Source: a virus
Virus record (IMG/VR): IMGVR_UViG_2921643360_000001
Span: 1 to 64,000 of that record
Length of the DNA stretch: 64,000 nt
Direction: 5' to 3' (one strand)
The position numbers were made by a program, and so were the translations under genes. The notes under the pieces are model-generated. The model saw only the letters and a program-made list of their open reading frames with translations. It was not told the DNA's origin and did no database searches. How positions within the stretch are numbered: position 1 is the stretch's first letter; each line of letters begins with the position of its first letter. Positions 481-62,419 of this stretch are shown here, piece by piece.

Positions 481-1554
481 TCAGCGCGTCGGGCCCACTT
501 TTTCACCTCGGCGCTTCCGAACATAGTGCTCGGTCATGGTAACGGATTCGTGCCCAAGCTGCTTCTGTGCTTCTCGAATGTCGCCCGATGAATCCGCCTT
601 GTCTGTCGCCGCTTTCGCGCGCAAATCGCGTAACTGAAACGAGTTGTCGTCCTTGATGCCCGCCGCCCTTCGGGCGTTCTTGAAGCGCATCTGCATCGCG
701 TTCAGGGTCATCCGTTGGCCCTTCTCGTTGACCACCAGCGCTGTGCTCACGACCTTGTACGACGCCTTGCGGGCTTTGATCCGCTCGATGGCCGTTTTCA
801 GTTCTCCAGCGATCTCCATGCGAATTTTCTTGCCAGTCTTGCCCTGGTCGATCAGAAGGAACCCGTCGCGGATATCTCGCTCGTCAAAATTCAGCGTGTC
901 CTGCGGGCGCTGGCCGGCCAGGTAAGCCAAGTCCATAAAATCCTTGGTCGGCTGGTCGGCCTTCTCATACACGCGCGCAAACAGGTCATCTTCAACGTAG
1001 ACGTCGCGCCCTTCCACCGTGTTCCTCTTGACACCCGTACACGGGTTGGCCGCCTTAGTCAGACCAACTGCGCGAGCCTTGTTGAATATATGGCTGAACA
1101 GCGAGAGTTCCCTGTTAGCGCGCGCATGACCGGCGTTAGGTGGGGCTGCCCTCCCCTTGCTGGCGAACCACTTGACAGACTTCTCATAGCGCCAGCGCAG
1201 ATATGCACTGACATGCATCGGCTCGATCTCGTCGAGGGGTGTGTCGTCTTCGAAGTATTCTTTGAGATTCGCCAACTCCTCCAAGTTGTCTGACTGAGTT
1301 CGCGGCTTCTTGCGGGGCAATTCCTCCCGCAGATAGACGGTCACGGCGTCCCGAAATGTGCTCCCGGCATCTTTCGGCGTATCGGCCTGCTCGATCTCAG
1401 CCCAGCGCGTGACGGCCTTCCGGTAGTCCGTCCCAAGCGACTCCTCGCGTCGAGGTTTGCCGCCGTGGTCGTAGTAATAGTAGATCGTCTCGCCGCGGTG
1501 ACGGGCGCGCATCCCTGGCGGCAAATGAGTGTTGCGCGTCGGCTTCCTGCCCAT
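481..1554 (-). CDS. int: Tyrosine recombinase / phage integrase
   Basis: 357 aa. The C-terminus 'FQLRDLRAKAAT...LGHESVTMTEHYV' fits the R..H-x-x-R..Y catalytic region. It is the terminal gene of the prophage. Confidence 0.9.
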   Translation of the reverse strand: MGRKPTRNTHLPPGMRARHRGETIYYYYDHGGKPRREESLGTDYRKAVTRWAEIEQADTPKDAGSTFRDAVTVYLREELPRKKPRTQSDNLEELANLKEYFEDDTPLDEIEPMHVSAYLRWRYEKSVKWFASKGRAAPPNAGHARANRELSLFSHIFNKARAVGLTKAANPCTGVKRNTVEGRDVYVEDDLFARVYEKADQPTKDFMDLAYLAGQRPQDTLNFDERDIRDGFLLIDQGKTGKKIRMEIAGELKTAIERIKARKASYKVVSTALVVNEKGQRMTLNAMQMRFKNARRAAGIKDDNSFQLRDLRAKAATDKADSSGDIREAQKQLGHESVTMTEHYVRKRRGEKVGPTR

Positions 1555-9607: not shown

Positions 9608-9730
9608 CTACCAGAACTTCGCGATGAAGTGAAAGATTGCGTAGACGCCAAGCCCAACGAATCCGAGCCAGAAAAGCGTGAACAGAACCGCCATCAGTTC
9701 AACCGTTGTAAATCCCTTTTGCTTCTTCAT
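9608..9730 (-). CDS. 40-aa prepilin-like peptide (class III signal / N-methylation motif)
   Basis: My translation is MKKQKGFTTVELMAVLFTLFWLGFVGLGVYAIFHFIAKFW. 'KGFTTVE' plus 14 hydrophobic residues fits the type IV pilin N-terminal motif. SD GGAGG lies 5 nt upstream, and the start overlaps the upstream stop (ATGA). Confidence 0.6.
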   Translation of the reverse strand: MKKQKGFTTVELMAVLFTLFWLGFVGLGVYAIFHFIAKFW

Positions 9731-9858
9731 GCTTCCTCCCTCACTCCGATACGAAGCCTTTCATCGCGACGCTCGACCATCGAACCGCCTCGGCAGAGCG
9801 CCCAGGCGATCAGGCAGACGCCAGCCCAGACGGCGGCTATGATTTGAATGGTGGTCAT
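9727..9858 (-). CDS. 43-aa membrane peptide
   Basis: My translation is MTTIQIIAAVWAGVCLIAWALCRGGSMVERRDERLRIGVREEA. It is translationally coupled to both neighbours. Confidence 0.45.
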   Translation of the reverse strand: MTTIQIIAAVWAGVCLIAWALCRGGSMVERRDERLRIGVREEA

Positions 9859-9859
9859 G

Positions 9860-10240
9860 TCAAACCTCGATTTCGATGGGGACGGCGATAGCCAGAAGCT
9901 TCAACCGGTTGCCATCAGCGTTGCTCAGCGCCTCGGCCTCAGTCTGAAATGCGCCAGCATCAAGCGCGATCGAGTCTTCCGCCTGAGCGTCGTACACATT
10001 TACGAAAACAATCCGCTTTGGCTTGGATGCCATGCGCAGGCGATCAGCACTGAAACCTCGCGTACAGCCGGCATTGTCTTCGGCCCAGATGGTTTCGTGA
10101 CTGTCGATGCCTACATACACGACTGGATAACAATCGCCAAGATCTCCGGCCGGGGTTGCCATGATCGGCTCGCCGCGCTTGGCGGCTTCAAGGTTGAATG
10201 GCTTCAAGTCAGACTCCGGGTATGTTCGGTAGACCAGCAA
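9860..10240 (-). CDS. Hypothetical protein (start uncertain; TTG at 10240 or ATG at 10162)
   Basis: 126-aa ORF with protein-like sequence. Confidence 0.5.
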   Translation of the reverse strand: MLVYRTYPESDLKPFNLEAAKRGEPIMATPAGDLGDCYPVVYVGIDSHETIWAEDNAGCTRGFSADRLRMASKPKRIVFVNVYDAQAEDSIALDAGAFQTEAEALSNADGNRLKLLAIAVPIEIEV

Positions 10241-10340
10241 TCCCCTGTTCCTGCCATTGCATGAACGAGCTACGGGTCAAGGTCGGGTGGACGAAGACGA
10301 TCATCGCGGCGCCATACCGCATGCGATAGAGTTGGTTCAT
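10209..10340 (-). CDS. Possible 43-aa ORF
   Basis: ATG preceded by GGAG. Reads MNQLYRMRYGAAMIVFVHPTLTRSSFMQWQEQGIAGLPNIPGV and fills a gap. Confidence 0.3.
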   Translation of the reverse strand: MNQLYRMRYGAAMIVFVHPTLTRSSFMQWQEQGIAGLPNIPGV

Positions 10341-10349
10341 TGTCATCTC

Positions 10350-10502
10350 CTACGCCCAGACAACGCTGTCAAGGCTCACATAAACCGAATCCAGCACCCT
10401 TCCCGTCCGGGTTACCCGGTCGATGCGGTAGACGAATCCAAGGTGCTGCAACTTCTCCTGGGCTATCGTCATCAATCTGTGCACTGCGCGTTGGGGGTTC
10501 AT
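10350..10502 (-). CDS. Possible 50-aa ORF
   Basis: ATGA overlap with the upstream stop. Reads MNPQRAVHRLMTIAQEKLQHLGFVYRIDRVTRTGRVLDSVYVSLDSVVWA. Confidence 0.4.
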   Translation of the reverse strand: MNPQRAVHRLMTIAQEKLQHLGFVYRIDRVTRTGRVLDSVYVSLDSVVWA

Positions 10503-10852
10503 GATTGGCTCGCTAGCAATGCTTCGATCCGATCAGCCACTTCTCCGGGCGTTGTGCGGTCGCCATTCGGATAATGCGGCGAATAGAACAGGTCGCTTGA
10601 TACAGGGCCACTCAGTTCGAAGAACTCTTCGACCGCGTCCCACGATTCGTACCCGTTGAAATTCGGAACATCGTCGACCAACTTCAAACCTTGGTCTGTG
10701 AAAACCTTGTTGAAGCACGCATGGCCTACGGCGCAAGCCGTTGTTCCGCATGAGTTTTCATCGTCATGCCAACGGGCAAGATCGAACCTGATGGCGTCTT
10801 CCGGCAGGTTTCGCAGCATGGTCACCATTTGCTGCAAGCGTTCACGGTTCAT
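10499..10852 (-). CDS. Hypothetical phage protein
   Basis: Start placed at the second ATG (MNRERLQQ), which has GGAGG 6 nt upstream. Conserved-looking 'CGTTACAVGHA' segment. Confidence 0.55.
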   Translation of the reverse strand: MNRERLQQMVTMLRNLPEDAIRFDLARWHDDENSCGTTACAVGHACFNKVFTDQGLKLVDDVPNFNGYESWDAVEEFFELSGPVSSDLFYSPHYPNGDRTTPGEVADRIEALLASQS

Positions 10853-10956
10853 TTCAGCCTCCATGCATCCATCGCCTCAACAGCGATAATCGCTAGCAGA
10901 GCGAAAGTGGTGGGGAGTAGTTCGAGGTGGGTGAAGAGGGACATGGCGGCGGCCGG

Positions 10957-11334
10957 TTAGGCGGCTTTCTTGAACGTCCGGACGACCACCATCTTTTCTT
11001 CCTCGGTGACGTCCAGGTTGTAGGCCTCATCCATCCAGTCGATAGCCTCGGGCTCGCCGTGCTTGCCACCGCCGTACCAGTATGTCCAGCCTACCCATGA
11101 GCCGTCTGGAGCCTTAGCGGCTACCGACTTGCTCTCGTAGTGCCGCGACGACTGGCAGGGAAGTTTCGTTTCAACTTCGCCTTCGCGAACCTCGTAGATC
11201 GCGTCCCACTTGTCCTCGCACTCGTCGTACAGATCGTCGATGTTGTCGGCGGTCACTTCGACTTCAATCGGCGTCTCGGCCCAGTCGGCGATTCTGGCGA
11301 GGATGATGTGTTTGATCTTTTGTTCGGGCGTCAT
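10957..11334 (-). CDS. Hypothetical acidic phage protein; first convincing gene of the PL operon
   Basis: Start at the internal ATG 11334 (MTPEQKIKHII...), with a GGAG-containing leader. Confidence 0.55.
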   Translation of the reverse strand: MTPEQKIKHIILARIADWAETPIEVEVTADNIDDLYDECEDKWDAIYEVREGEVETKLPCQSSRHYESKSVAAKAPDGSWVGWTYWYGGGKHGEPEAIDWMDEAYNLDVTEEEKMVVVRTFKKAA

Positions 11335-11939
11335 GTCTGCTCCAATAGTTGTCCTAACCGCATTGCACAAAATACTGACGGGAGGGCGCTGTTACTGTGC
11401 CGCCGACTTCGGCTAACCTACTGCACCGCCATGCGCATGTTTCAGCGATGGGCTAACGTGGCTCAGTTTCGCGGGTACTCGTCGTTGGCAGGGAGCCCAG
11501 CGGGCCCTTTCGTCAATACTCGTCTCATGGAACGGGGCCGGCGGTTTCCATCTGATCCGGCTTGGGGCGTGGCACTGATTCCCCGCTTGTACGGCATATG
11601 CCGCTCATACCACCTATCACCGGAAGTTCGCGCCATTTAGGTCGTTCGACCGCAGGACTACCAGAGCCGGTTTCGATCTTGCTGCCCGTCACCACCGGGC
11701 TACCCGTTCCATCAAACTGCTTCTTCGGACCCATCCGGCTACACCTGGCAGGCCAGCTCCGGCCTGGGTCCGTCCTACTCCTCCACCAACCGCGCAACTC
11801 ACAAGGTCACGCGACTGCCGCAGGTGCGTTCGCTTTCTACTCGAGCGAACAGCTTTGTTCCGAGCTGCGAAAAGAAACCCCGCAGAATGGTTGGCTTAAC
11901 TACGCCTTTTGCGCACCATGGGCGCGACGTACTGTGAAG

Positions 11940-11951
11940 TTGTTAAAGAGC
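11940..11951 (-). promoter_or_regulatory. rrn-type boxA-like element (GCTCTTTAACAA) about 45 nt downstream of the predicted PL start
   Basis: The minus strand reads GGCTCTTTAACAACTTC. This matches 12 of the 13 nt of E. coli rrn boxA (TGCTCTTTAACAA) and sits where lambda carries nutL. Confidence 0.5.
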
Positions 11952-12000
11952 CCTCAGACTGCGAGGTGCGCCGTTGCGCGGTGTTGCTGGTATGGATAGA

Positions 12001-12029
12001 ACGATAGCAAACGCTCTCGAAGAACGCAA
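12001..12029 (-). promoter_or_regulatory. PL early-left promoter (-35 TTGCGT, 17-nt spacer, -10 TATCGT)
   Basis: Same hexamers, spacing and embedded operator as the PR copy at 12979..13007. Confidence 0.6.
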
Positions 12030-12038
12030 GCAAAAGCT
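12006..12038. promoter_or_regulatory. OL operators (AGCAAACGCT, AGCAAAAGCT; 23-bp spacing)
   Basis: Each is one mismatch from the OR motif AGCAAATGCT. The 23-bp phasing is identical to OR sites 2 and 3. Confidence 0.55.
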
Positions 12039-12081
12039 ATCGTTGATCGATAAATTTTTTTAGCGCTAGTGTTGCGCAGAA

Positions 12082-12106
12082 ACAAAAAAGCCCGCCGAAG
12101 CGGGCT
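12082..12106 (-). terminator. Rho-independent terminator after the repressor gene
   Basis: Minus strand reads GCCCGCTTCGGCGGGC followed by TTTTTTGTTT, 22 nt after the stop. Confidence 0.8.
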
Positions 12107-12127
12107 GAACAAGCGTTTGAGTGTTTT

Positions 12128-12910
12128 TCAGGTGCTGCGATACATGCCGGATCCGCGCGGCACGATGGCGCCTACACGATGGATAGACACGATATCGGCC
12201 AGCGACCTCGTGATTGGAGGAATGCCATTGTTGATCGAACCAAGGCTGACTTCCTCATCACGGATCCACAACAATTCTTTGACGACAGCGCTGCCGTCGA
12301 CAAACTTGACCACCACATCATCACCCGGAAGAGCTTCGACGCCGGGTTCCACAACGATGTGTTCGCCACTCTTTATGCGCGGCCTCATGCTATCGCCGCG
12401 CACCTTCAAACCATAGGCCGTTGGGTCTGGTGAATGGATGTTGAGCCATCCATGGCCGTGACCTGGCGGATAGTCGTCGATACTGATAAACCCATCCGGC
12501 CCACCCTGCACTTCCCCGACCACGGCTATATCCCTCCCAGCCTTTAGTTCCAATCGCTCGCCAACGTTTGCTTCTGCTCGTGGCAGGCCTTCGATACTAG
12601 CCCCACCTTTCGGGACCGAAGGCGCAATCATGCCTGACTTTTGCCGGTTCTTCGAGATATCAGTGTCCGCTGAAATGTGGTTGCCGGTGACGCCCAAATC
12701 GAAGTAGAGAGTCGGCAAGCCAAGTTCGGACTCGAGTCGCCGCGCAGCTCCTTCGCCGAACCCGCGTCCCTCCCGATAGTTCGGGTTCAGCAGTTGTCGG
12801 ATCCGAGCCGCATCCTGGTTGTGCAGTCGAGCGAATTCAGCGGCGACCCCTCCCGCCTCCCTGTCCACTAGTTCCTGTAGCCGCTTACGGCGGTGCGCAT
12901 GTATGTCCAT
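12128..12910 (-). CDS. CI-like repressor with LexA/S24 peptidase C-terminal domain
   Basis: Start at ATG 12910 (MDIHAHRRK). The C-terminus 'GLKVRGDSMRPRIKSGEHIVVEP...VVKEL' is the S24 Ser/Lys autocleavage fold. Transcribed divergently from the cro-like gene. Confidence 0.85.
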   Translation of the reverse strand: MDIHAHRRKRLQELVDREAGGVAAEFARLHNQDAARIRQLLNPNYREGRGFGEGAARRLESELGLPTLYFDLGVTGNHISADTDISKNRQKSGMIAPSVPKGGASIEGLPRAEANVGERLELKAGRDIAVVGEVQGGPDGFISIDDYPPGHGHGWLNIHSPDPTAYGLKVRGDSMRPRIKSGEHIVVEPGVEALPGDDVVVKFVDGSAVVKELLWIRDEEVSLGSINNGIPPITRSLADIVSIHRVGAIVPRGSGMYRST

Positions 12911-23881: not shown

Positions 23882-24489
23882 ACCGTCTCCCCAGAAAAAA
23901 GAAGTGCGCAGCTTGCAAGACGGTTTTCGAACCAGCGCGCTCACTCCAGAAAGTGTGTAGCCCCAAGTGTGCCGCCGATTTTGCAGCGAAACAGAAAGCG
24001 CAGAAGTTGGCGAGGGCGAATCGGGAGGAGAGGAAGTCCCTCGCAGAGCGTAAAGCCAAGCTCAAGACTCGCCGCGAGTGGATTGCCGAGGCTCAGGCGG
24101 CATTTAACGCATACGTGCGTGAGCGAGATTACGGGAAGCCATGCATAAGTTGCGGCATCCCGCCGAGGGAAGCTTTCGGCGGCGCTGTTGATTGCGGTCA
24201 TTATCGAAGTGTTGGCAGCGCTTCTCAGCATCGCTTCAATTTAAAAAATTGCGCTGCACAATGTGTCAAATGCAATAGATATTTAGGATCTAATGCCGTC
24301 GAAATGAGGAAAGGACTTATAATTAAGATTGGTCTAGAAGAATTGGAAAATCTAGAGTCAGACCAGACCATCAAGAAGTTCAACATCGAATACCTCGCTC
24401 GCATCAAGCGAGTCTTCCTCAAGAAAGCGCGGCGAGCTAAGGCCCGGAGAAATCATGAGCATAACGAAATGGAATATGCAGCCGGGTGA
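23878..24489 (+). CDS. ninG: NinG/Rap-like recombination protein
   Basis: N-terminal 'KKCAACKTVFEP...VCSPKC' and central 'CISCG...DCGHYRSVG...NCAAQCVKCNRYLGSN' fit lambda NinG. Confidence 0.75.
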   Translation: MNRLPRKKKCAACKTVFEPARSLQKVCSPKCAADFAAKQKAQKLARANREERKSLAERKAKLKTRREWIAEAQAAFNAYVRERDYGKPCISCGIPPREAFGGAVDCGHYRSVGSASQHRFNLKNCAAQCVKCNRYLGSNAVEMRKGLIIKIGLEELENLESDQTIKKFNIEYLARIKRVFLKKARRAKARRNHEHNEMEYAAG

Positions 24490-25264
24490 CCGGTTTTGTC
24501 GGCTGACCTTCAAGAGTGAAGGCGACGGTCGTAAAAATCGGGCGAGATATGGAATCTTCATCTGCGATTGTGGTACCGAGAAAGATGTGGCGTTCTCGCA
24601 CGTTGTTTCGGGAAAAATAAAAAGTTGTGGATGCCTCAAAGCGGAAGATGCCGGTAACAGGCTTCGCACTCATGGGATGCATGGTTCGCCAGAATATACG
24701 GTGTGGCAAGACATGTGGCAGCGCTGCACCAATCCAAAGACGGACAGATATCCGAATTACGGCGGACGGGGCATATCCGTCTGCGAGCGGTGGAAGTCGT
24801 TCGAGAACTTCTTTGCAGACATGGGTCAGCGCCCAGAAGGAACGTCGATAGAGCGAAAGGAGACGAACGGCAACTACGAGCCAAGTAACTGTCGTTGGGC
24901 CACGCCCAAGGAGCAAGGAAGGAATAGAACCAACAACCGTTTTATCGAATACAACGGGGAGAGGAAATGTGTTTCTGAATGGAGCGAGCAATTCGGCATA
25001 CCTCATTCAACGATTAACAATCGACTTCGGCTAGGGTTATCGTTAGATCAGGTTTTTGATGCAAGTGCAGATGGGTTTAAAAAGAAGTCAATCGTTGTCG
25101 ATGGTGTATCGAAGTGCACCAACGAATGGATGCGTGATGCTGGCATACCGATTTCGTCCTTCTATCACTTCCGGCGAAAGGGGCTGACTGAAGAAGAGAT
25201 CGTCAGGAAGTATCTGGCGCGCAAGCAACCCTACTCTCAAACGAATAACGAGGAAGCAGCCTAA
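24455..25264 (+). CDS. HNH-like (degenerate HNH_3-type) free-standing endonuclease paralog 1
   Basis: 'YPNYGGRGISVCERW..FENFFADMGQRPEGTSIERKETNGNYEPSNCRWATPKEQGRN' plus two C-terminal HTH-like repeats. Overlaps the ninG 3' end. Confidence 0.65.
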   Translation: MSITKWNMQPGDRFCRLTFKSEGDGRKNRARYGIFICDCGTEKDVAFSHVVSGKIKSCGCLKAEDAGNRLRTHGMHGSPEYTVWQDMWQRCTNPKTDRYPNYGGRGISVCERWKSFENFFADMGQRPEGTSIERKETNGNYEPSNCRWATPKEQGRNRTNNRFIEYNGERKCVSEWSEQFGIPHSTINNRLRLGLSLDQVFDASADGFKKKSIVVDGVSKCTNEWMRDAGIPISSFYHFRRKGLTEEEIVRKYLARKQPYSQTNNEEAA

Positions 25265-51261: not shown

Positions 51262-51297
51262 GAGACCCGCTCGGTGCGCTAACACCTTGCGGGCCTC
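51262..51297 (+). promoter_or_regulatory. Conserved leader hairpin of cassette 2
   Basis: GAGACCCGC..GGTG-cgctaa-CACC..GCGGGCCTC, which covaries with the copy at 58737..58773. Confidence 0.55.
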
Positions 51298-51328
51298 TAA
51301 CCACCATCTGCTTTCGAGGAGCAAAACG

Positions 51329-51952
51329 ATGGCTACCAAAGATTTTACCTCAGTTGGCGCAGTATTTTCCCGCCTTACCGTGATAGGTTCGCCAGAGAAG
51401 CGCGACCAGCGCTGGTTCGCGCCCTGCCGTTGCGAATGCGGGGCCGAGAAGTTTGTGCAATGCAAGCATCTTGTGTCCGGCGCGACGGTTTCCTGCGGTT
51501 GCGTGAAAAAGGGGCGACCCAACCTGAAGAATCGGACCCATGGCAATTGCGTTGGCGAGAGCAAGGCTTCTCCAACGTATCTAAGCTGGGTTGCTGCCAA
51601 ATCGCGTTGCGATGATGCCAAGGACCGAGACTATGCGAATTACGGCGGTCGGGGCATTCGCATGTGCGATCGCTGGCGCAATGATTTCTCGACGTTTCTC
51701 GCCGACATGGGCGAGCGGCCCGTTGGCATGACGCTAGACCGCTTCCCGGACACGGACGGCCACTACGAGCCGGGCAATTGCCGCTGGGCGACGAACCGCG
51801 AGCAACAGAATAACCGCCGCAATAATGTCCTCATTGAGCACGGCGGCCAGATGAAAACATGCACGCAGGTCGCCCGCGAATATGGAATCCGCCCCAGTGT
51901 GTTCATTGGCCGCATACGACGAGGATGGTCGGTAGAACGCGCCACATCCTAA
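51329..51952 (+). CDS. HNH-like (degenerate HNH_3-type) endonuclease paralog 2
   Basis: 'YANYGGRGIRMCDRW..FSTFLADMGERPVGMTLDRFPDTDGHYEPGNCRWATNREQQNN'. N-terminal Cys cluster CRCECG..CGC. Confidence 0.65.
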   Translation: MATKDFTSVGAVFSRLTVIGSPEKRDQRWFAPCRCECGAEKFVQCKHLVSGATVSCGCVKKGRPNLKNRTHGNCVGESKASPTYLSWVAAKSRCDDAKDRDYANYGGRGIRMCDRWRNDFSTFLADMGERPVGMTLDRFPDTDGHYEPGNCRWATNREQQNNRRNNVLIEHGGQMKTCTQVAREYGIRPSVFIGRIRRGWSVERATS

Positions 51953-52060: not shown

Positions 52061-53704
52061 ATGGACCGTGTGATTACGTATGTAGGGATGAGCGTATACG
52101 AATGGCTCTTTTCTAAACAAGCGCAAAGCTCGATGGTCGGGCTCTCGAAGCTGTCGGCCGCCATGTTCGGTTCGAATACCGTGGCCAATGGTCTTTCCTG
52201 CGTACCGACCGGCCCCGCTTCGCTGCAAGTCGTCATCAACCCCGGCGAAATCTACTCGTTCGCCAACCTCGAGAACAGCGTCTGCGGAACGCTGCCGACT
52301 GATTCTCACAGCATCATGAAGCAAGGCGTCCTGCTGGATGCTTTTACGACGACTGCTGGTGCGCTTCCCGCGCCAGGCACGGCTGGACAGTCGGTGAACT
52401 ATCTCATCGAAGCCCAGTACGCAGATTCAGACGTCTCGGTCGATCCGACGACGGGCAGCGCGCCTGTCGTGCTTCAGTTCTATAACTCTTCGAATCCCGG
52501 CTCGCCTTGGAGCGGTCCTGGCGGCCTCGGCGGCACGAGCAACACGTTCCGTAAGGGCGTTGTGTCGCTCCAGATCAAGGCAGGTGCCGCGGCAACGACG
52601 GGCAGCCAGACGACGCCCTCACCTGATGCTGGCTGGACTGGGCTGTGGGTCGTGACGGTCGCCAATGGGCAGACACAGATCCTCGCGGGCAACATCACGC
52701 AATACGCAGGCGCGCCAATCCTGCCGTCGTCGATTCTTTCGTCGATCCAAAGCGGAAATATGTCGTATGCGGTCGCAACCGGGTCGGCTAACGCTCACAC
52801 GATCGCCTTGACGCCGGCTCTCACGTCGCGCGTCGACGGCATGATGATCCGCTACAAGGCTCCTGCCGCCAACACGACAGCCGTGACGCTGAACGATGGC
52901 GTCGGAACGGCCAACGTTCTCGGCGCGAACCACGCGGCACTCCAGGGCGGCGAATACATCACCAACGGTGACGCCATTGTCGTCTGGAATAGCTCGATCA
53001 GCGGCGGTTCGTACATCCTCATCGAATGCACTGGCGGCGCCCTCCAAATCCCCCCCGCCACTCAGAGCCAGCATGCTGTGCAGTTGGGGCAGGTGCAGCA
53101 GAACTATGCGTGGAATGGCGGGTTCCAGGCCGTTAGCGCAACCGGGAACTTTACAGTTCCGGCCGGCGTTTATAGATTGCGTTACCGCGTATGGGGTGGC
53201 GGTGGCGGCTCAGGCGGATGTGGGTCGACTGGCCAGACAGCAGGGGGCGCTGGCGGTGGCGGCTACTCCGAGGGAGTCGCTAGCGTAACTCCTGGTCAAA
53301 CTGTGTCATGCACTATTGGAGCAGCAGGTACCGCCGGGGGGGCAGGTGGCTCCGGTGGTACAGGCGGCACTACGTCGTTCACTGCAGGCGCTTTGACGGT
53401 TTCCGCTACCGGCGGGTCTGGAAGTTCAAACGGCATAGGGTCTGGCGGGAATGGAGCAGCCGGTGGCACCGGATCTGGTGGGCAAAACAACCTGACTGGT
53501 GCCGGCGGCTGCTCGGGTTCGGGCTCGACGGGCGGCCCTGGGGGCATGGGTGGTTCGGCCCCCCAAGGCGGTGGCGGTGGCGGTGGCGCAACTGGGACCG
53601 CCCAGTCCGGGCAGACGCCTGGCGGCGGCGCAGGAGGGCCTGGTGCGGCTGGAGCCAACCCGGGCGCCATTGGCGGAGCTGGTCGCATTGTTTTTGAATG
53701 GTGA
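52061..53704 (+). CDS. Tail fibre protein with C-terminal glycine-rich domain
   Basis: 547 aa after the baseplate. C-terminal 'WGGGGGSGGCGSTGQTAGGAGGGGYSEG...GAGRIVFEW'. Confidence 0.7.
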   Translation: MDRVITYVGMSVYEWLFSKQAQSSMVGLSKLSAAMFGSNTVANGLSCVPTGPASLQVVINPGEIYSFANLENSVCGTLPTDSHSIMKQGVLLDAFTTTAGALPAPGTAGQSVNYLIEAQYADSDVSVDPTTGSAPVVLQFYNSSNPGSPWSGPGGLGGTSNTFRKGVVSLQIKAGAAATTGSQTTPSPDAGWTGLWVVTVANGQTQILAGNITQYAGAPILPSSILSSIQSGNMSYAVATGSANAHTIALTPALTSRVDGMMIRYKAPAANTTAVTLNDGVGTANVLGANHAALQGGEYITNGDAIVVWNSSISGGSYILIECTGGALQIPPATQSQHAVQLGQVQQNYAWNGGFQAVSATGNFTVPAGVYRLRYRVWGGGGGSGGCGSTGQTAGGAGGGGYSEGVASVTPGQTVSCTIGAAGTAGGAGGSGGTGGTTSFTAGALTVSATGGSGSSNGIGSGGNGAAGGTGSGGQNNLTGAGGCSGSGSTGGPGGMGGSAPQGGGGGGGATGTAQSGQTPGGGAGGPGAAGANPGAIGGAGRIVFEW

Positions 53705-53708
53705 GCTT

Positions 53709-53891
53709 ATGGTCCAAAACTACGCATTAGTCGCAAGCGGCGTCGTCGCTAATACCATCATTTGGGATGGCGACACTGAAAACTGGCAGCCCCCCGATGG
53801 TCAAGTGGTCGTGTTGATACCCAGTGACGCGGGGCCGGTGTCGATTGGCTGGAAATGCGACGGCTCGGCATTCACGTTACCTGAATTGTAA
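53709..53891 (+). CDS. 60-aa tail-fibre-adjacent protein
   Basis: Reads MVQNYALVASGVVANTIIWDGDTENWQPPDGQVVVLIP..., a pattern I recall recurring next to phage fibre genes. Confidence 0.5.
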   Translation: MVQNYALVASGVVANTIIWDGDTENWQPPDGQVVVLIPSDAGPVSIGWKCDGSAFTLPEL

Positions 53892-53895
53892 AGAC

Positions 53896-53904
53896 TGGTA
53901 ATAT
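53896..53904 (+). promoter_or_regulatory. Extended -10 promoter (TGgTAATAT) for the radical-SAM gene
   Basis: Lies 25 nt upstream of the ATG. The SD AAGGAG sits in the loop of a GCGCG/CGCGC hairpin. Confidence 0.4.
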
Positions 53905-53928
53905 GCGCGTCTATAAGGAGCGCGCAGA

Positions 53929-55242
53929 ATGCTTATTTCGAAAATCGGCGGGGCGGTAAATAAGGTAGCGATGTCGGTCAAGCATCGCGTCGTCGGGCGG
54001 GCGATCTCTACGCTAGAGAAACCTCATCAGGCAGTTCCCGATGTCGCGATTCCCGATGTTCCCGAGACGGATGAGTCTGTTCTCGCTCGATCCGAGTCTA
54101 TTATTTCCCGGGCAATTTCTGCTGGCCGATCTGGCAAGCTGACCGTTGTTCCTGAGATGATCTCCGTCGCGGCCACGGAAAACTGCAATCTTAAGTGTGT
54201 TATGTGCCCAGGTCATGCGGGTATGAGCGGTCCGAAACTCTCAGTCAATGAGGCCGAAATGCTATTCGCCTCGCTCGCTGTTGAAGGCCCGCATTTTGGG
54301 TCGCCGAAGATCCTAGACATGACATCTGGTGAGCCCACGCTCAACCCCGACCTAGGGCCAATTTACGGCCGATTCAAAGAACTTTTCCCCGATTCGAAGA
54401 TTTCGATGATAAGCAACGGGACGATCCCCGTTCGCGGTCGAACCCGTGAAGCATTCGAACATGCTGACCGCATCGGTCTTTCGATGGACGGCGCGACGCA
54501 GGAGACGTATGAGCGGATCCGTCAAGGGTCGATATGGAAGAACGTCATTCGCAATGTGATGGACGTTGCTGAAATCAAGAAGTTGGGTGAGAACTGCGAG
54601 ACGTTGCAGATCATGATGGTTGTTATGGACCAGAATATCCATGAACTACCTGAAATGATCCGCCTCGCACATTCCCTTGGAATTCCGCAAGTGTTCGCGC
54701 AGGTTTCTGAGATTCGTACTACCCCCTTCAATATCGCAGGGCAGAACGTTTCGCTTACTCTCTCAAAGGAAAAACTCGCCCCTATAGTACACGAGGCGAA
54801 GCAGGAGGCTCAGCGACTCGGCTTGGATTTGACTCTTACGGCGCATCTGGAAAATTCACTCGTTCCGGATGAGCCAAAGCAACCAGCGACTGCTCAGATG
54901 ACACATGACGAGCGCGCGTTGAGTGTCGCGATTCGAACGTGTAATGTGCCGTGGATGCATGCACCGCGCATTTCGCAAAATCACGATGGGATCTACCCCA
55001 CAACGGTTTGCTGCCATATGCCGAATGTCCATGGCGCTGGCAATTTGGCACGCCGGGAGGAGTTCCGCGGGAAGTCGATCAACGAAATCTTCAACTCGCC
55101 ATACTATTGGGAAATTCGGGCTGGGTTGATGGATGGATCGCTTGCCAATGATGCATGCAAGGGTTGCCAGTATCACCAGATGACGCAGTGGACGGCCACC
55201 CAATTGCGCGAATTGGAAGAGGCCGTCGATGCATCAGTTTGA
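53929..55242 (+). CDS. Radical SAM enzyme with SPASM/twitch-like Cys-rich C-terminus
   Basis: 'ENCNLKCVMCPG' (CxxxCxxC), 'SGEPTLNP' and 'SNGT'. C-terminal Cys pattern CNVPW..VCCH..ACKGC. Visibly lower GC than the flanks. Confidence 0.8.
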   Translation: MLISKIGGAVNKVAMSVKHRVVGRAISTLEKPHQAVPDVAIPDVPETDESVLARSESIISRAISAGRSGKLTVVPEMISVAATENCNLKCVMCPGHAGMSGPKLSVNEAEMLFASLAVEGPHFGSPKILDMTSGEPTLNPDLGPIYGRFKELFPDSKISMISNGTIPVRGRTREAFEHADRIGLSMDGATQETYERIRQGSIWKNVIRNVMDVAEIKKLGENCETLQIMMVVMDQNIHELPEMIRLAHSLGIPQVFAQVSEIRTTPFNIAGQNVSLTLSKEKLAPIVHEAKQEAQRLGLDLTLTAHLENSLVPDEPKQPATAQMTHDERALSVAIRTCNVPWMHAPRISQNHDGIYPTTVCCHMPNVHGAGNLARREEFRGKSINEIFNSPYYWEIRAGLMDGSLANDACKGCQYHQMTQWTATQLRELEEAVDASV

Positions 55243-55605
55243 TTGATTCAGGGACGGGGATAACGACGGCGCCTCGCCACATTCGTTTTCGGCTAGTCCC
55301 TGCTCGTCTACAGGTCGGTCAGGAAAGCTCATAGGCGCTCGCATTCCGATCAGTGCCGTGAGTTTTCCGAAGAAGGACCGCTTGTGCGTCTCCAGTCCGA
55401 ACTCTCGTGCGCTTCGCTGGAAGTTGTCGACCTCCCCGGAGCAGAAGCAGGCGACATACCGGTAGGTCTCTCGTCGTCGATTCAGAAGGGCGAAATACGC
55501 ATAGACAGGCTGATCGAATTTCTTGATCTCTCCCACCTGTAAGCGCTCAACAAATGCTTTGTCCTGCTCCGGCATGTGCCGCGTAGTCAAAAGTATCGTC
55601 TGCAC
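55234..55605 (-). CDS. 123-aa hypothetical protein (GTG start, strong SD GGAGG)
   Basis: Converges on, and overlaps by 9 nt, the radical-SAM 3' end. No motif recognised. Confidence 0.55.
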   Translation of the reverse strand: MQTILLTTRHMPEQDKAFVERLQVGEIKKFDQPVYAYFALLNRRRETYRYVACFCSGEVDNFQRSAREFGLETHKRSFFGKLTALIGMRAPMSFPDRPVDEQGLAENECGEAPSLSPSLNQSN

Positions 55606-55706: not shown

Positions 55707-56504
55707 CTAAAATTTTATTTTCAGCTCCAGCGCATCGGCATCATTCCACAGTGGCGGAATTTCGCGCTTGTTGCTGTTGATGCTCATGAAGTAATGCCTG
55801 TAGCTCAAGGTGAGGCGACCGTTTCCTACGGACAGCCCAGCAACGGGCGCGACGGACCAGTAGGCATCGGAAACGCTGATGTCCTGTGCCGTCTGCGTTG
55901 GCCACGCCTTCCACCCGGCGACGTGCTCGGACCACGAGTCACGATGCACATAGGCGCCGACTTCTGCGCCGACGCGGACGCCGTAGACCCAGTAGTACGG
56001 CTCAAGCGTCAGCGCGACACCTTGTGATCGTCCTTCGCCCGTGAAATACGCCTGCGGTACGTCAACCTTACGCGTGTAAGAGTGCGACGATGGGTCGTAA
56101 TTCGCGTCATTCGGCGTGCATGAGCAGTCGGCTGCAGCGCGACCAAGATTGACGTATTCGGCGTGCCAGTCGACGCCCCATTTGCCGCGAGTGATGAGCG
56201 GACCAGTGAAGCCAGCAGAGAAAGCCGGCGGCTTGCTCGTCAGCTTTGAGCCGCCCGGAATGCCCTCCTGGTACCAGCGACCATCGGTCGTGGTGTACTT
56301 GGCCGCGCCAATGCCCAATTCGACCTGAACGTAATCGTTGATGTAATCAGCATGCGCCGACGCAGCGGCACAGCCCAAACTCATCGCAACAGCCGCCGCA
56401 CGCCACCGCGACCCAACGCGGCGATTCGTGCGTGAAGCCGTAACCTGTTGGCGCGGAACTCGGCGACCGCGTGAAGCCTGAACCACCCGATTTTGCGTGT
56501 GCAT
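55707..56504 (-). CDS. Outer-membrane beta-barrel protein (Lom/Ail-like moron)
   Basis: Signal peptide '..AAVAMSLGCAAASAHA|DY', alternating aromatic beta-strands and a C-terminal '...LELKIKF'. Confidence 0.7.
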   Translation of the reverse strand: MHTQNRVVQASRGRRVPRQQVTASRTNRRVGSRWRAAAVAMSLGCAAASAHADYINDYVQVELGIGAAKYTTTDGRWYQEGIPGGSKLTSKPPAFSAGFTGPLITRGKWGVDWHAEYVNLGRAAADCSCTPNDANYDPSSHSYTRKVDVPQAYFTGEGRSQGVALTLEPYYWVYGVRVGAEVGAYVHRDSWSEHVAGWKAWPTQTAQDISVSDAYWSVAPVAGLSVGNGRLTLSYRHYFMSINSNKREIPPLWNDADALELKIKF

Positions 56505-56506
56505 TT

Positions 56507-57187
56507 TTATTCTCCGAGCGCAACTGTCAAATTAGCTGCGTGATTTGCTGTCCAGACGGTTGCGAAAGCTTGCAGCGATGCTTTGCGCTCGTCATAGTCC
56601 TTGCCCAAGCCGATCATTACGGCGTTGCGCTCTTCCAGTCTTGCCAGAAGATCGAGCGCAGTCGTTGACAGGCTGTCGCGCTCAAGAGATTGAAACTTGC
56701 CTGATGCGGCCCAGTTGACCAGCCGCGCCTCATTGGAAAAATGATGCGGAGCGCATGTCTTGCCGATGGCCTCGCGGCTCAATTGCACAATCTGCGACAT
56801 GACCTTGTATGACGCTGCGGCTTCGTGGCGAAGACGTTTCTGGTCAAAGTGCGGATGCTGGCGTGTGATGAGCGCACGAATTTGCCGATCGCACCAGATA
56901 GCGAAGCGCACGTCCAGCCATCGGGCGAATCCAACCGCAAGATCGGGATGAAGCCAAGTTCCGCCGCTCTTGCCGCGCAAGGTGCGAATCCAATTACCAG
57001 ATTCTCCGGTATTTAAGGATTCATCCAAGGCAGCGATGTATTCCTGTGTGGCAGGAAGGGCGAGCCAGTCATTCGGACGCTTGCCGAATTGCGAGGCGAT
57101 GGCTGTCGCATTGAACCAACCTTCGTCAGTAAATGAGACGGCCACGCCTTGGTAGTCTGCGACGATGATTTGCTGTTTGGGGGCCAT
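56507..57187 (-). CDS. KilA-N domain protein
   Basis: 'VSFTDEGWFNATAIASQFGKRPNDWLALPATQEYI...GTWLHPDLAVGFARWLDVRFAIWCD' matches KilA-N. Confidence 0.75.
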   Translation of the reverse strand: MAPKQQIIVADYQGVAVSFTDEGWFNATAIASQFGKRPNDWLALPATQEYIAALDESLNTGESGNWIRTLRGKSGGTWLHPDLAVGFARWLDVRFAIWCDRQIRALITRQHPHFDQKRLRHEAAASYKVMSQIVQLSREAIGKTCAPHHFSNEARLVNWAASGKFQSLERDSLSTTALDLLARLEERNAVMIGLGKDYDERKASLQAFATVWTANHAANLTVALGE

Positions 57188-57212: not shown

Positions 57213-57493
57213 CTACTGCGTGTCTTCTCCAGCGGCCTCCGACATGTCCATCGTGGCGCCGACTTTGCGCATTTCGTCGATCACGGCTTCGATATCCCGC
57301 TGCTTGAGCACGAGTTTCGCCATAGCGAAAAACAGCATTTGCGCGCTGATCTTCCTCGGCTCCTTCCCGCCCGTATATTTCCTGAATTGCTTGTCGTCCG
57401 ATACACCGAACAACTCGGCCATCTGGGAGCCGGTATATCCAAGCCGCGCCTTGAGTCGCGCTAGGTCTTCTGGGGTCGGTGCTTCGTAGCGCA
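57213..57493 (-). CDS. XRE-like HTH regulator
   Basis: 'GYTGSQMAELFGVSDDKQFRKYTGG'. ATG at 57493 is preferred over the TTG at 57509. Confidence 0.6.
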
Positions 57494-57595
57494 TTGAGGA
57501 ATCGTCCAAGGCTGCGCGAAAAATCGCGAAATGTTCTTCTCATGATTCTTCCTTTCGGAGTTGTCGGGTTGCCGGATGGCCGCCCTGTGATTGGA

Positions 57596-57625
57596 AGTAT
57601 CAGCCCCGAAGGGGGCATTTGTCAA
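57596..57625 (-). promoter_or_regulatory. Sigma70-like promoter (TTGACA-18-GATACT) for the HTH/KilA-N/OMP operon
   Basis: Read from the minus strand. The spacer contains the hairpin GCCCC-ttc-GGGGC. Confidence 0.5.
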
Positions 57626-58803: not shown

Positions 58804-59472
58804 ATGGCTATCCGCAAGTATATCGCATCTGGCGAAATCCTCCATGGTTGGGTCTACGTCCGAGAGGGCGTGGATCGCGGCAGGACTCGGCACATCTTCG
58901 CAATGTGCCCCTCATGCAAAAACGAAGTCGAAGTAAATGCGACTGAGGTGCGGACTGGAAAAAAGAAAATGTGCCGTCCATGTGCCGACAAATTCAACGG
59001 GGCGAGATGCCTGGTTCATGCAGAAAAGTGGGCGACGCACAGGATGTCAGGTTCGACAACTTACGAATCATGGCGGTCTATGATGAAGCGTTGCTACTTA
59101 GAAAGTGCAACGTTCTATCAATACTACGGCGGAAAAGGGGTCAAAGTTTGCGACCGTTGGCGGGATTCGTTCGCCAATTTCTTTGCTGATATGGGAGAGC
59201 GCCCTGAAGGCATGACCTTGGACAGATACCCCGACAAGAACGGTGACTACGCGCCGGGTAACTGCAGATGGGCAACGCCAACGGAACAGATTCGCAACAG
59301 AAATACCACGGTGTATATTGAGTTCCGGGGGTTGCGCAAAACGATGAAGGAATGGGCGGATGAAATTGGTGTCGCCTACAAGACATTACGCGCAAGGATA
59401 GTTGACCAAGGATGGCCAATAGACCGCGCACTTACTACGCCGCTGCGGATCCACAGAAAGCACGTCCCATAA
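58804..59472 (+). CDS. HNH-like (degenerate HNH_3-type) endonuclease paralog 3
   Basis: 'YQYYGGKGVKVCDRW..FANFFADMGERPEGMTLDRYPDKNGDYAPGNCRWATPTEQIRN'. N-terminal CPSC..CRPC. Confidence 0.65.
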   Translation: MAIRKYIASGEILHGWVYVREGVDRGRTRHIFAMCPSCKNEVEVNATEVRTGKKKMCRPCADKFNGARCLVHAEKWATHRMSGSTTYESWRSMMKRCYLESATFYQYYGGKGVKVCDRWRDSFANFFADMGERPEGMTLDRYPDKNGDYAPGNCRWATPTEQIRNRNTTVYIEFRGLRKTMKEWADEIGVAYKTLRARIVDQGWPIDRALTTPLRIHRKHVP

Positions 59473-60682: not shown

Positions 60683-62419
60683 ATGGGCGCGCCAGACCTC
60701 TCAAACTGGATCTGGCCGGACGCGGATCTACAGCGCCAGCCTCAGGGCGTGGTCACGGTCAACCCTCAGGTTTTCCCCAGCGCGGTACGCTGCTTTGTCG
60801 GTGGCCGCGATGTGTTGACGAACATCAACCTGGCGCTCCCGCTCATCCAGACGCCAGCCGGAACGGGATATACAAACACCAGCAACTCGGCCGCCGCCAA
60901 GCAACTGTCGAGCACTCTAGCCACTTCGTCCGGCGCGGGCGCAGGTGATTTCACGATCATCTGTGTACACAATCTGGCGGCAAGCGGGTCTCAGAATTCG
61001 GTCGCCTGGGCGATTGACGCTAACAAGGCCGCCCCTGGCTTCTATGTCCAGATGAACGCCGACACGTCGGGTGCCTTGGCATCTGGCGATATGACGTTTG
61101 GGGACTTTAATAACGCGGGGATCGCGCTGACCGGGGCGGTTGACGGCAAAAGTCACGCAGTCATTTTCACGCGGCGCGGCACGACGCTCTATGCCTTCAT
61201 GGATGGGGCGCTGAAGTCTACGCTCGCCTCCTACACTTATGCCCTGCCCGCGTCGGGCAATGCGGAGTGGGTGGGAGGGTCAGGGTGGGCTAACACCGGC
61301 GTCGTCGGGGGTGGCGTCCCGCTTATCGCGGTGTCCAACCGGGGGTTGACGATTGCCGAGGGCGTGGCGCTCTCTGCTAACCCCTGGCAGATTTTCAAGC
61401 CGGCGACGATGGCGCTGTATATGCCAGCGGCTGCGGGCGGCGTGACGGTTGGGCTGTCTCAGGTAGCGGGTGCGGGTAGTGTCGGTGCTGTCGGCATCGC
61501 AACGGGGCTCTCGGCAACGGGCGTATCTGCGACTGGTGCGACGGGTTCTGCCGGATATGGCGAAGGTTATGCGATCACTGGTGCGGCGGCCACTGGCAGC
61601 ACGGGTATTGCTACGCCCGCCTCGTCTCCAGTTCTGGCAGGTGCCAGTGCGACAGGCTCGATGGGCACCGCTGCGCCTTCGATCACCGCAGCGCTGACCG
61701 GCGTATCGGGTGCATCGTCTGTCGGTAGCGTAACCCCCGGCACTTCGGCGGCCCTGACGCAAGTCGCCGCAACGGGATCGACGGGCTCGGTAAGTGAGGG
61801 TATTTCACTGGCCCTGTCTGGCGTCGCGGGAACGGGATATGTCGGCACCGTCTCATCTGGCGGCAACATCACGCAGGCGCTGTCCGGGGCCCCTGCTACT
61901 GGCGCTGTCGGCTCCGTATCCCCTTCCCTGTCGCTGGTTAGTTCTGGCGTCTCGGCAACGGGCAGCACGGGCTCTCTCGCTCCGACTCGCGCGCTATCCG
62001 GCGTATCTGGAGCCAGCACGACTGGCGCCGTCACGCAGTCGATATCGCCTACCCTCGTCGGCTCAAGCGCAGCCGGGTCAACAGGCGCTATCTCTGCGGG
62101 CGCGGACAAGAATGCAGCTCTGACTGGTGCTGCGGCAACGTCTTCCGTTGGCAGTGTTGGCACGAACGTCTCGATCGGTCTGGCTGGCATTTCCGCGACG
62201 GCATCGACCGGCGTTCTCGCGTCGAGCCTGACTTATGGACTGGTTGGAAATGCGTCGGCAACAAGCGTTGGATCGATTCTGGCCGTCACTCCAAAATCCA
62301 TCGCGGCCCCGCCTGTCACGTTCCCGATCTACCGAGAGCGGCGCGTGTTCAGCATTCCATCTGAAAGTCGCATATCGCCCGTTCCTGCCGAGAGGCGAAT
62401 CATCAAAGTCGCAGCCTAG
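60683..62419 (+). CDS. LamG/concanavalin-A-like lectin domain protein with about 13 tandem ~20-aa G/S/T/A repeats
   Basis: 'DGKSHAVIFTRRGTTLYAFMDGAL' is a LamG-type core. The C-terminal half consists of 'ALSGVSATGSTGSV...' units. Confidence 0.6.
   Translation: MGAPDLSNWIWPDADLQRQPQGVVTVNPQVFPSAVRCFVGGRDVLTNINLALPLIQTPAGTGYTNTSNSAAAKQLSSTLATSSGAGAGDFTIICVHNLAASGSQNSVAWAIDANKAAPGFYVQMNADTSGALASGDMTFGDFNNAGIALTGAVDGKSHAVIFTRRGTTLYAFMDGALKSTLASYTYALPASGNAEWVGGSGWANTGVVGGGVPLIAVSNRGLTIAEGVALSANPWQIFKPATMALYMPAAAGGVTVGLSQVAGAGSVGAVGIATGLSATGVSATGATGSAGYGEGYAITGAAATGSTGIATPASSPVLAGASATGSMGTAAPSITAALTGVSGASSVGSVTPGTSAALTQVAATGSTGSVSEGISLALSGVAGTGYVGTVSSGGNITQALSGAPATGAVGSVSPSLSLVSSGVSATGSTGSLAPTRALSGVSGASTTGAVTQSISPTLVGSSAAGSTGAISAGADKNAALTGAAATSSVGSVGTNVSIGLAGISATASTGVLASSLTYGLVGNASATSVGSILAVTPKSIAAPPVTFPIYRERRVFSIPSESRISPVPAERRIIKVAA
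61430..62290 (+). repeat. Imperfect tandem coding repeats (~57-60 bp unit)
   Basis: Seen in the translation as xLxGVxATGSxGSVxxxxSx repeated about 13 times. Confidence 0.6.

Follow-up and report, generated by a model that had tools for sequence, protein, structure and literature searches.

What is a radical S-adenosylmethionine (SAM) enzyme doing between the tail-fibre and lysis genes of a prophage? The question is raised by a 437-codon gene in IMG/VR virus record IMGVR_UViG_2921643360_000001, whose positions 1 to 64,000 were analysed (hereafter the window). This DNA belongs to a temperate, myovirus-like prophage in Paraburkholderia steynii that carries an integrase (481..1554), helicases, terminase, portal, tail sheath and baseplate, and the enzyme, here called rSAM, belongs to a small and uncharacterised family whose usual home is very probably bacterial surface-polysaccharide biosynthesis, judging from the genes around its relatives. 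The favoured explanation, held with confidence that is evenly balanced, is that rSAM is a single-gene lysogenic-conversion moron that would oxidise or epimerise an O-antigen sugar precursor. A first-pass annotation of this DNA had already raised lysogenic conversion as one of its ideas, and we keep it as the best reading, at that same halfway level, on the glycan context of the relatives.

The enzyme and its family

The gene and the parts of its product on which the argument depends are the following.
53929..55242, plus strand: coding sequence of the radical-SAM enzyme, 437 amino acids (aa)
53929..54063, plus strand: variable basic N-terminal segment (aa 1-45), with a low-confidence model and poor family alignment
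54184..54207, plus strand: CxxxCxxC motif ENCNLKCVMCPG (C86, C90, C93), read from the sequence, its Cys invariant in 30/30 family members
54940..55167, plus strand: twitch-like (degenerate SPASM) domain, C338-x22-C361-C362-x47-C410-x2-C413, five Cys invariant

The protein is 100% identical to BZM27_06120 of Paraburkholderia steynii (P0001), for which the NCBI start lies 14 codons further in (423 aa); the ATG at 53929 was preferred because AAGGAG lies 7 nucleotides (nt) upstream and alignment with the closest homologues starts at M1. When 30 family sequences are aligned (29-76% identity to the query), the invariant residues are C86, C90, C93, G134, E135, N163, T165, C338, C361, C362, C410 and C413, and the open reading frame (ORF) in the window is intact and keeps all of them. 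Pfam Radical_SAM (PF04055) matches aa 83-247 with 54.9 bits against a cut-off of 29.5 (E 1.5e-14), which together with the CxxxCxxC motif places the protein in that superfamily, and the fold is the partial (beta/alpha)6 TIM barrel. The radical-SAM assignment of the first-pass annotation, made from CxxxCxxC, SGEPTLNP/SNGT and the C-terminal Cys of the 437-aa ORF, is thus confirmed by sequence, alignment and Pfam; beyond CxxxCxxC, the motifs read TSGEPTLNP, ISNGT, C338 (CNVPW), C361-C362 (VCCH) and C410/C413 (ACKGC). C86, C90 and C93 would bind the radical-SAM [4Fe-4S] cluster.

The AlphaFold2 (AF2) model is confident, with a predicted local distance difference test score (pLDDT) of 86.9 and a predicted template modelling score (pTM) of 0.83, except at aa 1-42 and in the loop 321-325. 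The N-terminal extension had been described as about 95 aa of low-complexity sequence; an extension is present, but it measures about 75 aa, and only its aa 1-42 vary; these are disordered in the model (pLDDT <50) and not really of low complexity. Net positive charge and amphipathic stretches recur in the N-terminal segment of most closer homologues, from which we infer that it might associate peripherally with the membrane. Two conserved helices follow at residues 48-76 and pack against the core (pLDDT 77-97). A recognition element (RRE) for ribosomally synthesised and post-translationally modified peptides (RiPPs), which had been suggested as a domain to look for, is not found at this end: the AF2 model holds a low-confidence helix and two short helices, and no beta-strands.

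A large insert separates the radical-SAM core from the C-terminal Cys domain, which had been labelled SPASM/twitch. The twitch half of that label fits, and a full SPASM domain is not present: over aa 359-414, Pfam SPASM (PF13186) scores 13 bits (E 0.13), with a cut-off of 21.5, weak SPASM matches occur in 9 of the 30 family members, and the canonical seven-Cys pattern (CX9-15GX4C...CX2CX5CX3C...C) has lost its CX5CX3C half, with five C-terminal Cys conserved. Canonical SPASM domains are present in more distant relatives. The twitch pattern (C...C, then CxxC) is matched by C338, C361/C362 and C410-x2-C413, and the five conserved Cys would suit one auxiliary cluster of the twitch type, with one Cys to spare. 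Overall, the gene is predicted to encode a functional radical-SAM enzyme with one twitch-type auxiliary Fe-S cluster.

rSAM falls in no curated family, because its NCBIfam matches lie far under their cut-offs and its matches to the PADLOC models for prokaryotic viperins (pVips) are confined to the radical-SAM core. The best NCBIfam match was TIGR04311 (rSAM_Geo_metal; 72.7 bits against 400), NF033640 (N_Twi_rSAM) gave 71.1 bits against 170 and NF038283 (viperin_w_prok) 39.4 bits against 180, and the two PADLOC models scored 43.7 and 33.3 bits. In the comparison with known structures, the figure per enzyme was 20.0 for BlsE (7vob, cytosylglucuronate decarboxylase), 18.5 for SuiB, 17.5 for SkfB, 16.2 for both MoaA and PqqE, 15.8 for viperin, 15.7 for the anaerobic sulfatase maturase (anSME), 15.2 for DesII and 12.6 for BtrN. 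BlsE also ranks first in the PDB sequence-profile search, and viperins are among the PDB matches by sequence and by fold. However, BlsE is only 17% identical, its sequence match covers the core only (aa 71-245), its pathway is that of a nucleoside antibiotic (blasticidin S), and it decarboxylates, a reaction to which nothing points for the prophage enzyme.

A search of 5.8 billion proteins yielded about 45 relatives of full length (400-460 aa, 36-75% identity), below which the scores fall sharply to generic radical-SAM/SPASM proteins. When 1.84 billion representatives, clustered at 50% identity, were searched exhaustively with a profile, only about 10 of full length scored above 400 bits. Where a source is named, it is Paraburkholderia steynii, Paraburkholderia sp. 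SOS3, one of several Variovorax species or a deltaproteobacterial metagenome-assembled genome (MAG). Some members are fused to a methyltransferase domain (P0030, P0046). Glycosyltransferase fusions, considered for the multi-domain relatives, were rejected, as the more distant large proteins are tandem radical-SAM/SPASM or aminotransferase fusions. A scan of genome contigs with the family alignment, whose patterns are generic, returned mostly generic radical-SAM/SPASM proteins; its one useful match was the MAG locus (L006), where the homologue (9716..11196) is split over three overlapping frames, either as a frameshifted pseudogene or through an assembly error.

Glycan loci of the relatives and the proposed reaction

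About 10 of the 17 distinct contexts place rSAM in glycan clusters for the synthesis and transfer of a dTDP-3-amino-3,6-dideoxyhexose. The typical string consists of a family 61 glycosyltransferase (GT61), a hexapeptide acyltransferase, FdtA, a DegT-type aminotransferase and rSAM, often with the Wzm/Wzt O-antigen exporters. In the Fuc3NAc/Qui3NAc pathway, FdtA acts as 3,4-ketoisomerase, DegT/FdtB as aminotransferase and the hexapeptide protein as N-acyltransferase. L166-L169, L006, L188, L189, L184 and L190, whose rSAM proteins are 36-65% identical to that of the window, carry GT61 and a hexapeptide transferase together with FdtA, DegT or both. The gene orders around rSAM were as follows.
L167: Wzm-Wzt, GT61, hexapeptide transferase, FdtA, DegT, rSAM, glycerophosphotransferase, kinase/methyltransferase
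L166: Wzm/Wzt fusion, GT61, hexapeptide transferase, rSAM, FdtA, DegT
L168: RmlA/RmlD-like, ABC transporter, GT61, hexapeptide transferase, FdtA, rSAM, DegT
L169 (36% identical): FdtA, DegT and hexapeptide transferase at most 4 kb away
L006: hexapeptide transferase, FdtA, DegT, GT61, hexapeptide transferase, sugar O-methyltransferase, rSAM, SGNH/AT3 acyltransferase
L188 and L189: GT61, hexapeptide transferase, FdtA, DegT, rSAM
L184, L190 and L191: DegT adjoins rSAM
L180-182 (73% identical): split transketolase, GtrA, GtrB-like family 2 glycosyltransferase (GT2), rSAM, 639-aa protein with 12 transmembrane helices (TM)

At L191, the rSAM protein is 74% identical to the query and the DegT directly upstream is a fragment. 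The 639-aa protein of L180-182, with its 12 TM and a soluble C-terminal domain, looks like a GT-C glycosyltransferase; adjacency to GtrA/GtrB was seen for a single homologue (P0004). The contexts inspected held no sulfatase, molybdopterin, PQQ or heme genes, nor a precursor peptide. Because the family sits in O-antigen and other glycan clusters or beside GtrA/GtrB, a sugar is a far likelier substrate than a RiPP peptide or an antiviral nucleotide. The substrate had been given as unknown at first pass; with FdtA, DegT, hexapeptide acyltransferase, GT61 or GtrA/GtrB adjoining the relatives, at least its class is no longer blank.

Two conserved companions of rSAM gave no match in Pfam, NCBIfam or PDB sequence searches. 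The first is a 9-TM protein, with about 100 aa in a periplasmic loop, encoded directly downstream of rSAM in an IS66-bounded cassette (L002, rSAM 75% identical; 11335..12717) and in Variovorax chromosomes (L004, 11502..12848, also L186 and L187; rSAM 65% identical). Its two versions are 44% identical to each other, and a role as a Wzy-, GT-C- or ligase-like partner is conceivable. The second is a soluble protein of about 480-506 aa (L002 2100..3620, L166 10905..12356, L167 12030..13478, L006 11476..12972), 36-62% identical between loci, which co-occurs with rSAM in four Fdt-type glycan clusters and may be a further enzyme of the same pathway.

The reaction that we propose would run as follows. 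A lysogen would transcribe rSAM from its own extended -10 promoter (see below). SAM would be reductively cleaved, and the 5'-deoxyadenosyl radical would take a hydrogen from a sugar carbon of a cytoplasmic O-antigen precursor, either a nucleotide sugar of the dTDP-3-amino-3,6-dideoxyhexose type or a polyprenyl-phosphate-linked sugar. The auxiliary cluster could then accept an electron, giving a keto sugar, or the invariant Cys362 could return a hydrogen to the other face, giving an epimer. Host glycosyltransferases would build the altered O-antigen, changing serotype and phage receptor and so leading to lysogenic conversion and to superinfection exclusion. On these contexts, we give O-antigen conversion of the host by the prophage copy about an even chance, and the specific chemistry, which is argued from analogy, is doubtful.

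The analogy is with twitch-domain radical-SAM enzymes that act on sugars, namely BtrN, a 2-deoxy-scyllo-inosamine dehydrogenase, and the epimerases HygY and NeoN. The similarity to BtrN is confined to the core (19.9 bits). These enzymes have about 250-270 aa, against 437 aa here with an N-terminal extension of about 75 aa and the large insert between core and Cys domain, and their type occurs in aminoglycoside clusters, whereas the rSAM family is found in O-antigen clusters and prophages.

The prophage slot and its control region

In the window, the fibre gene (52061..53704; phrog_863) is followed on the same strand by the rSAM gene directly downstream, then by a holin-like gene and a GH19 endolysin (phrog_181), which confirms the placement between tail-fibre and lysis genes proposed at first pass. 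The AT-richness of the gene relative to its flanks was also borne out: its GC content is 53.3% (59% at third codon positions, GC3), against 63.0% (GC3 67%) in the fibre gene, 61% in the endolysin and 58.3% in the whole window. Its 53% lies inside the 38-57% GC range of most of the Fdt-type glycan loci sampled. Related metagenomic prophages (L174-L179) have no rSAM in the same fibre/lysis slot, so that a discrete insert of deviant base composition is present here and the description as a lower-GC single-gene moron holds. The terminator scan found no intrinsic terminator between the rSAM gene and the late operon.

A second copy occupies the identical slot in a prophage of Paraburkholderia sp. 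SOS3 (L001), where rSAM is 71% identical as protein and 72% as DNA. The order there is Baseplate_J, a 219-aa protein, fibre, a 60-aa ORF, rSAM, a convergent gene for an outer-membrane protein (OMP), a 96-aa regulator and lysis genes, and a 27.6-kb circular record from strain SOS3 shows the same arrangement around rSAM. The fact that a copy so diverged keeps the same slot in a second species argues for long retention under selection. At L171, a 38%-identical rSAM adjoins an integrase. In L174-L179, the slot instead holds a 320-aa SGNH/GDSL-like gene, the OMP and a 238-aa protein without assigned function. Since these prophages carry SGNH/GDSL and OMP genes and no rSAM, the slot appears to be a cargo hot-spot for envelope functions in which the OMP is constant and rSAM variable, and it suggests a site that gathers envelope- and exclusion-related cargo. 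In the same prophages, the stop codon of the SGNH/GDSL-like gene lies directly beside the start of the OMP homologue, and the slot has an Imm_superinfect (PF14373) gene and a DNA ligase in its vicinity.

Similar to rSAM, the modules with which phages convert the O-antigen serotype, namely GtrABC (glucosylation), Oac/OafA (acetylation) and D3-type Wzy/Iap, are small cargo beside the tail-fibre, integrase or lysis genes of temperate phages. They also share with it atypical GC, a promoter of their own (a candidate in the present case) and relatives in O-antigen loci, and the 73%-identical homologue stands directly behind gtrA-gtrB and ahead of the 12-TM GT-C-like protein. In contrast to these modules, the window prophage has no GtrA/B/C, acetyltransferase or polymerase; a three-component Gtr module was not found, as tblastn with GtrA, GtrB and the GT-C protein came back empty in the window and L001. 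The lambda morons lom and bor resemble rSAM in their position among late tail and lysis genes, their lower GC and a likely autonomous promoter (again a candidate here), but they encode envelope proteins whereas rSAM is a cytoplasmic enzyme.

Two elements precede the gene.
53896..53904, plus strand: candidate extended -10 element TGGTAATAT (TGNTAWWAT), a block conserved in four homologues
53904..53926, plus strand: GCGCG/CGCGC hairpin directly after the -10 element, enclosing the Shine-Dalgarno (SD) sequence AAGGAG at 53916-53921

In an alignment of the upstream regions of the window, L001, L002 and L180 (mean column identity 59%), TG.TA..AT is invariant and is the only strongly conserved block; the four versions read TGGTAATAT, TGATACGAT, TGATACCAT and TGATAACAT and lie 24-31 nt ahead of the ATG. 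The extended -10 proposed at first pass is upheld by this conservation in 4/4 regions, which makes expression of rSAM independent of the late operon plausible. A weak -35-like TTACCT lies at 53877-53882, and a generic sigma-70 -35/-10 scan returned no pair on the plus strand at the candidate promoter. The earlier placement of the SD within the hairpin is likewise correct. In the SOS3 prophage, a hairpin of different sequence (GCACCCC/GGGGTGC) stands in the same place with -20.3 kcal/mol (z = -3.4; 0/200 shuffles as stable), so that hairpins occlude the SD in both prophage copies. L002 could by eye pair CGCUUCU with GGGGAGCG, a stem that the minimum-free-energy (MFE) fold did not choose, and no equivalent hairpin was found in the L180 upstream region. 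If transcription started about 7 nt behind the -10 element, the 5' end of the RNA would fall within or beyond the 5' hairpin arm and its SD would be free, whereas read-through late mRNA would hold the whole hairpin and be poorly translated. Lacking the 5' arm, the moron's own transcript would be translatable and the read-through would not.

The genes beside rSAM in the slot are the following.
53709..53891, plus strand: 60-aa ORF after the tail-fibre gene, phrog_14370 (E 5e-10)
55234..55605, minus strand: 123-aa ORF overlapping the rSAM stop by 9 nt, with a GGAGGA SD, a GTG start and coding-like GC at codon positions 1, 2 and 3
55707..56504, minus strand: OMP, an 8-stranded barrel analogous to Lom, in a minus-strand operon with the 123-aa ORF
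56507..57187, minus strand: KilA-N domain protein, its C-terminal half matching the PADLOC candidate defence model PDC-S22 (E 1.5e-10)
57213..57509, minus strand: 98-aa phrog_20491 protein, in the minus-strand operon with KilA-N, OMP and the 123-aa ORF

With its 3' end, the 60-aa ORF borders on the rSAM promoter region, and ORF and rSAM move together: a 55%-identical homologue precedes the SOS3 rSAM, its last 28 codons remain in L002, cut by the IS66 end, and L180 keeps a degenerate trace. Since such remnants precede rSAM in L002 and L180, the mobile clade has spread as a unit in which the 3' part of the 60-aa ORF is joined to the control region and rSAM. The glycan-cluster members of the family have no 60-aa ORF. 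As the ORF decays while rSAM stays intact, its product is not needed by rSAM and is unlikely to be its substrate.

For the 123-aa ORF, one homologue only (69% identical) was found among the 5.8 billion proteins; it apparently shares a 6,150-nt contig with an OMP homologue (P0268). The ORF is absent from the SOS3 prophage, so the answer to whether rSAM travels with it, a question posed at first pass, is no, and it was rejected as a partner or substrate. The parallel question on the OMP has a divided answer: it adjoins rSAM in both prophages, but has about 70 homologues, mostly in Paraburkholderia prophages, and occurs in prophages without rSAM. A 226-aa gene beside the SOS3 rSAM, considered as a KilA-N homologue, was rejected as such, because blastn and tblastn identify it as the OMP homologue. 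The KilA-N gene is absent from the SOS3 prophage. A promoter-like TTGACA-18-GATACT site lies at 57625..57596.

Further features of the prophage surround this slot. Three paralogous HNH-endonuclease-like genes on the plus strand (24455..25264, 51287..51952 and 58804..59472; 36-42% identical) are scattered in the prophage, one between baseplate and fibre genes and another after the endolysin; the gene at 58804..59472 matches phrog_3377 and phrog_374, and the boundaries of modules may be marked by the three as homing endonucleases. A second glycine-rich gene (60683..62419, plus strand, 578 aa, 63.5% GC), which lies downstream of the lysis cassette, has no PHROG match; fibre-like segments lie at the equivalent position in the SOS3 prophage (L001 16297..17617), and the gene may encode another fibre or receptor-binding module. 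In the fibre gene 52061..53704, the Gly-rich C-terminal half (Gly_rich_2; 68% GC) yields long overlapping ORFs in other frames or on the opposite strand, such as 53296..53688 (minus) and 53308..53697 (plus), which look like compositional artefacts and not genes.

Weighing the explanations

Several observations count against a role of rSAM in O-antigen conversion. The family has zero characterised members, a literature search returned nothing on it or on radical-SAM serotype conversion, and we know of no seroconversion system that uses radical-SAM chemistry. FdtA, DegT, GT61, GtrA/B and the 9-TM partner are all missing from the window and from the SOS3 prophage region, so a solo rSAM would depend entirely on host pathways. 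Two contexts, one of them rich in insertion sequences (L170) and the other L172, have no glycan genes, and the remnants of the 60-aa ORF indicate that rSAM reached L002 and L180 as a mobile cassette, so that the glycan genes nearby may be partly coincidental. A protein search of 50,697 phage records returned only distant radical-SAM enzymes (at most 32% identity) and no family member, and a scan of IMG/VR with the family alignment had no family member among the matches listed; phage carriage is thus rare and the prophage copies are possibly a recent accident. In the control region, TGGTAATAT is the sole TGNTAWWAT in the 64-kb window, where 1.7 are expected by chance, so that the count is not above chance, and the window hairpin (-14.7 kcal/mol, z = -1.6) is not significant alone. 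Finally, the choice between oxidation and epimerisation would follow BtrN, HygY and NeoN, as the gene context does not give the reaction.

An alternative explanation is that rSAM does nothing for the lysogen and is a passenger, either a recently captured gene that is silent or decaying or one expressed only by late-operon read-through and acting in lytic growth. The rarity of the family in phages just described, to which a search for near-identical DNA in the 50,697 phage records added no match, speaks for it, as do the missing pathway partners, the lack of an intrinsic terminator between rSAM and the late operon and the apparent frameshift of one homologue (L006). However, the ORF is intact with every family-invariant residue, a conserved promoter block stands upstream, and the diverged SOS3 copy (71% protein, 72% DNA) has kept the same slot. 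We consider a passenger unlikely, though worth keeping in mind.

A viperin-like antiviral enzyme would convert a nucleotide or nucleotide sugar to a chain terminator or toxic analogue and shield the lysogen against other phages. Defence functions are common among prophage morons, the neighbouring KilA-N protein matches PDC-S22, and rSAM resembles pVips in the size of its radical-SAM core, in its association with mobile elements and in the weak model matches (43.7 and 33.3 bits for pVip, 39.4 for viperin_w_prok) and PDB matches given above. The viperin model matches cover only the shared core (aa 78-245), the 39 bits compare with a cut-off of 180, and most homologues sit in glycan operons, not in defence islands. 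The rSAM family also has an auxiliary-cluster domain with five invariant C-terminal Cys and an N-terminal extension, and viperins to our knowledge have no auxiliary-cluster domain. The first-pass view that the enzyme is not a viperin is borne out by these scores and Cys, and antiviral action seems improbable.

A peptide or protein maturase of the RiPP kind, with the 60-aa product or the tail fibre as substrate, is a still slimmer prospect. The 60-aa ORF is directly upstream in both prophages, with remnants in L002 and L180, and rSAM lies on the same strand directly downstream of the fibre genes. But the ORF is truncated by IS66 in L002 and fragmentary in L180 while rSAM is intact, members of 56-65% identity sit in glycan clusters without such a peptide, and neither an RRE-like N-terminal domain nor a co-conserved precursor gene was found. 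The 60-aa protein belongs to phrog_14370, yet the separate 50,697 phage records, whose overlap with the phrog_14370 phages was left unchecked, hold no close rSAM relative. The similarity to SuiB and SkfB (12-15% identity) is that of the common radical-SAM/SPASM scaffold. The first-pass statement that no obvious precursor peptide is adjacent agrees with the pseudogene-like state of the 60-aa ORF in L002/L180 and the absence of the 123-aa ORF from SOS3.

A housekeeping maturase (anSME, MoaA, PqqE or the heme-pathway enzymes AhbC/D and NirJ) with its substrate encoded elsewhere, a finding that the first-pass annotation would have taken as contradicting its proposal, is very improbable and on sequence comparison already largely refuted, since NCBIfam scores are 4- to 20-fold under the cut-offs and cover the core only (best 72.7 against 400 bits; MoaA at most 55 against 231-325, PqqE 22 against 381), anSME is absent among the 25 best NCBIfam matches, and the homologue contexts lack sulfatase, molybdopterin, PQQ and heme genes.

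None of the four alternatives fits the context data as well as a role in glycan modification. In its most specific form, which we put forward only tentatively, rSAM would be the first radical-SAM serotype-conversion enzyme, gated to the lysogen by a promoter that skips the 5' hairpin arm and acting on a (3-amino-)6-deoxyhexose precursor.

Should the glycan link fail, rSAM would simply add to the number of uncharacterised radical-SAM morons. The known means of serotype conversion by phages are glycosyltransferases, acetyltransferases, phosphoethanolamine transferases or polymerase swaps, and a radical-SAM route, if true, would be new chemistry in the surface warfare between phage and host. The prophage copy offers a convenient handle on this, as it is a single gene, easily deleted or transplanted, with lipopolysaccharide (LPS) and phage adsorption as read-out. 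If the glycan role is correct, an enzyme family that lacks annotation and is found repeatedly in 3-amino-3,6-dideoxyhexose O-antigen clusters would also gain a function, and the rSAM family would define a new tailoring step in the Fdt-type O-antigen pathways of many bacteria.

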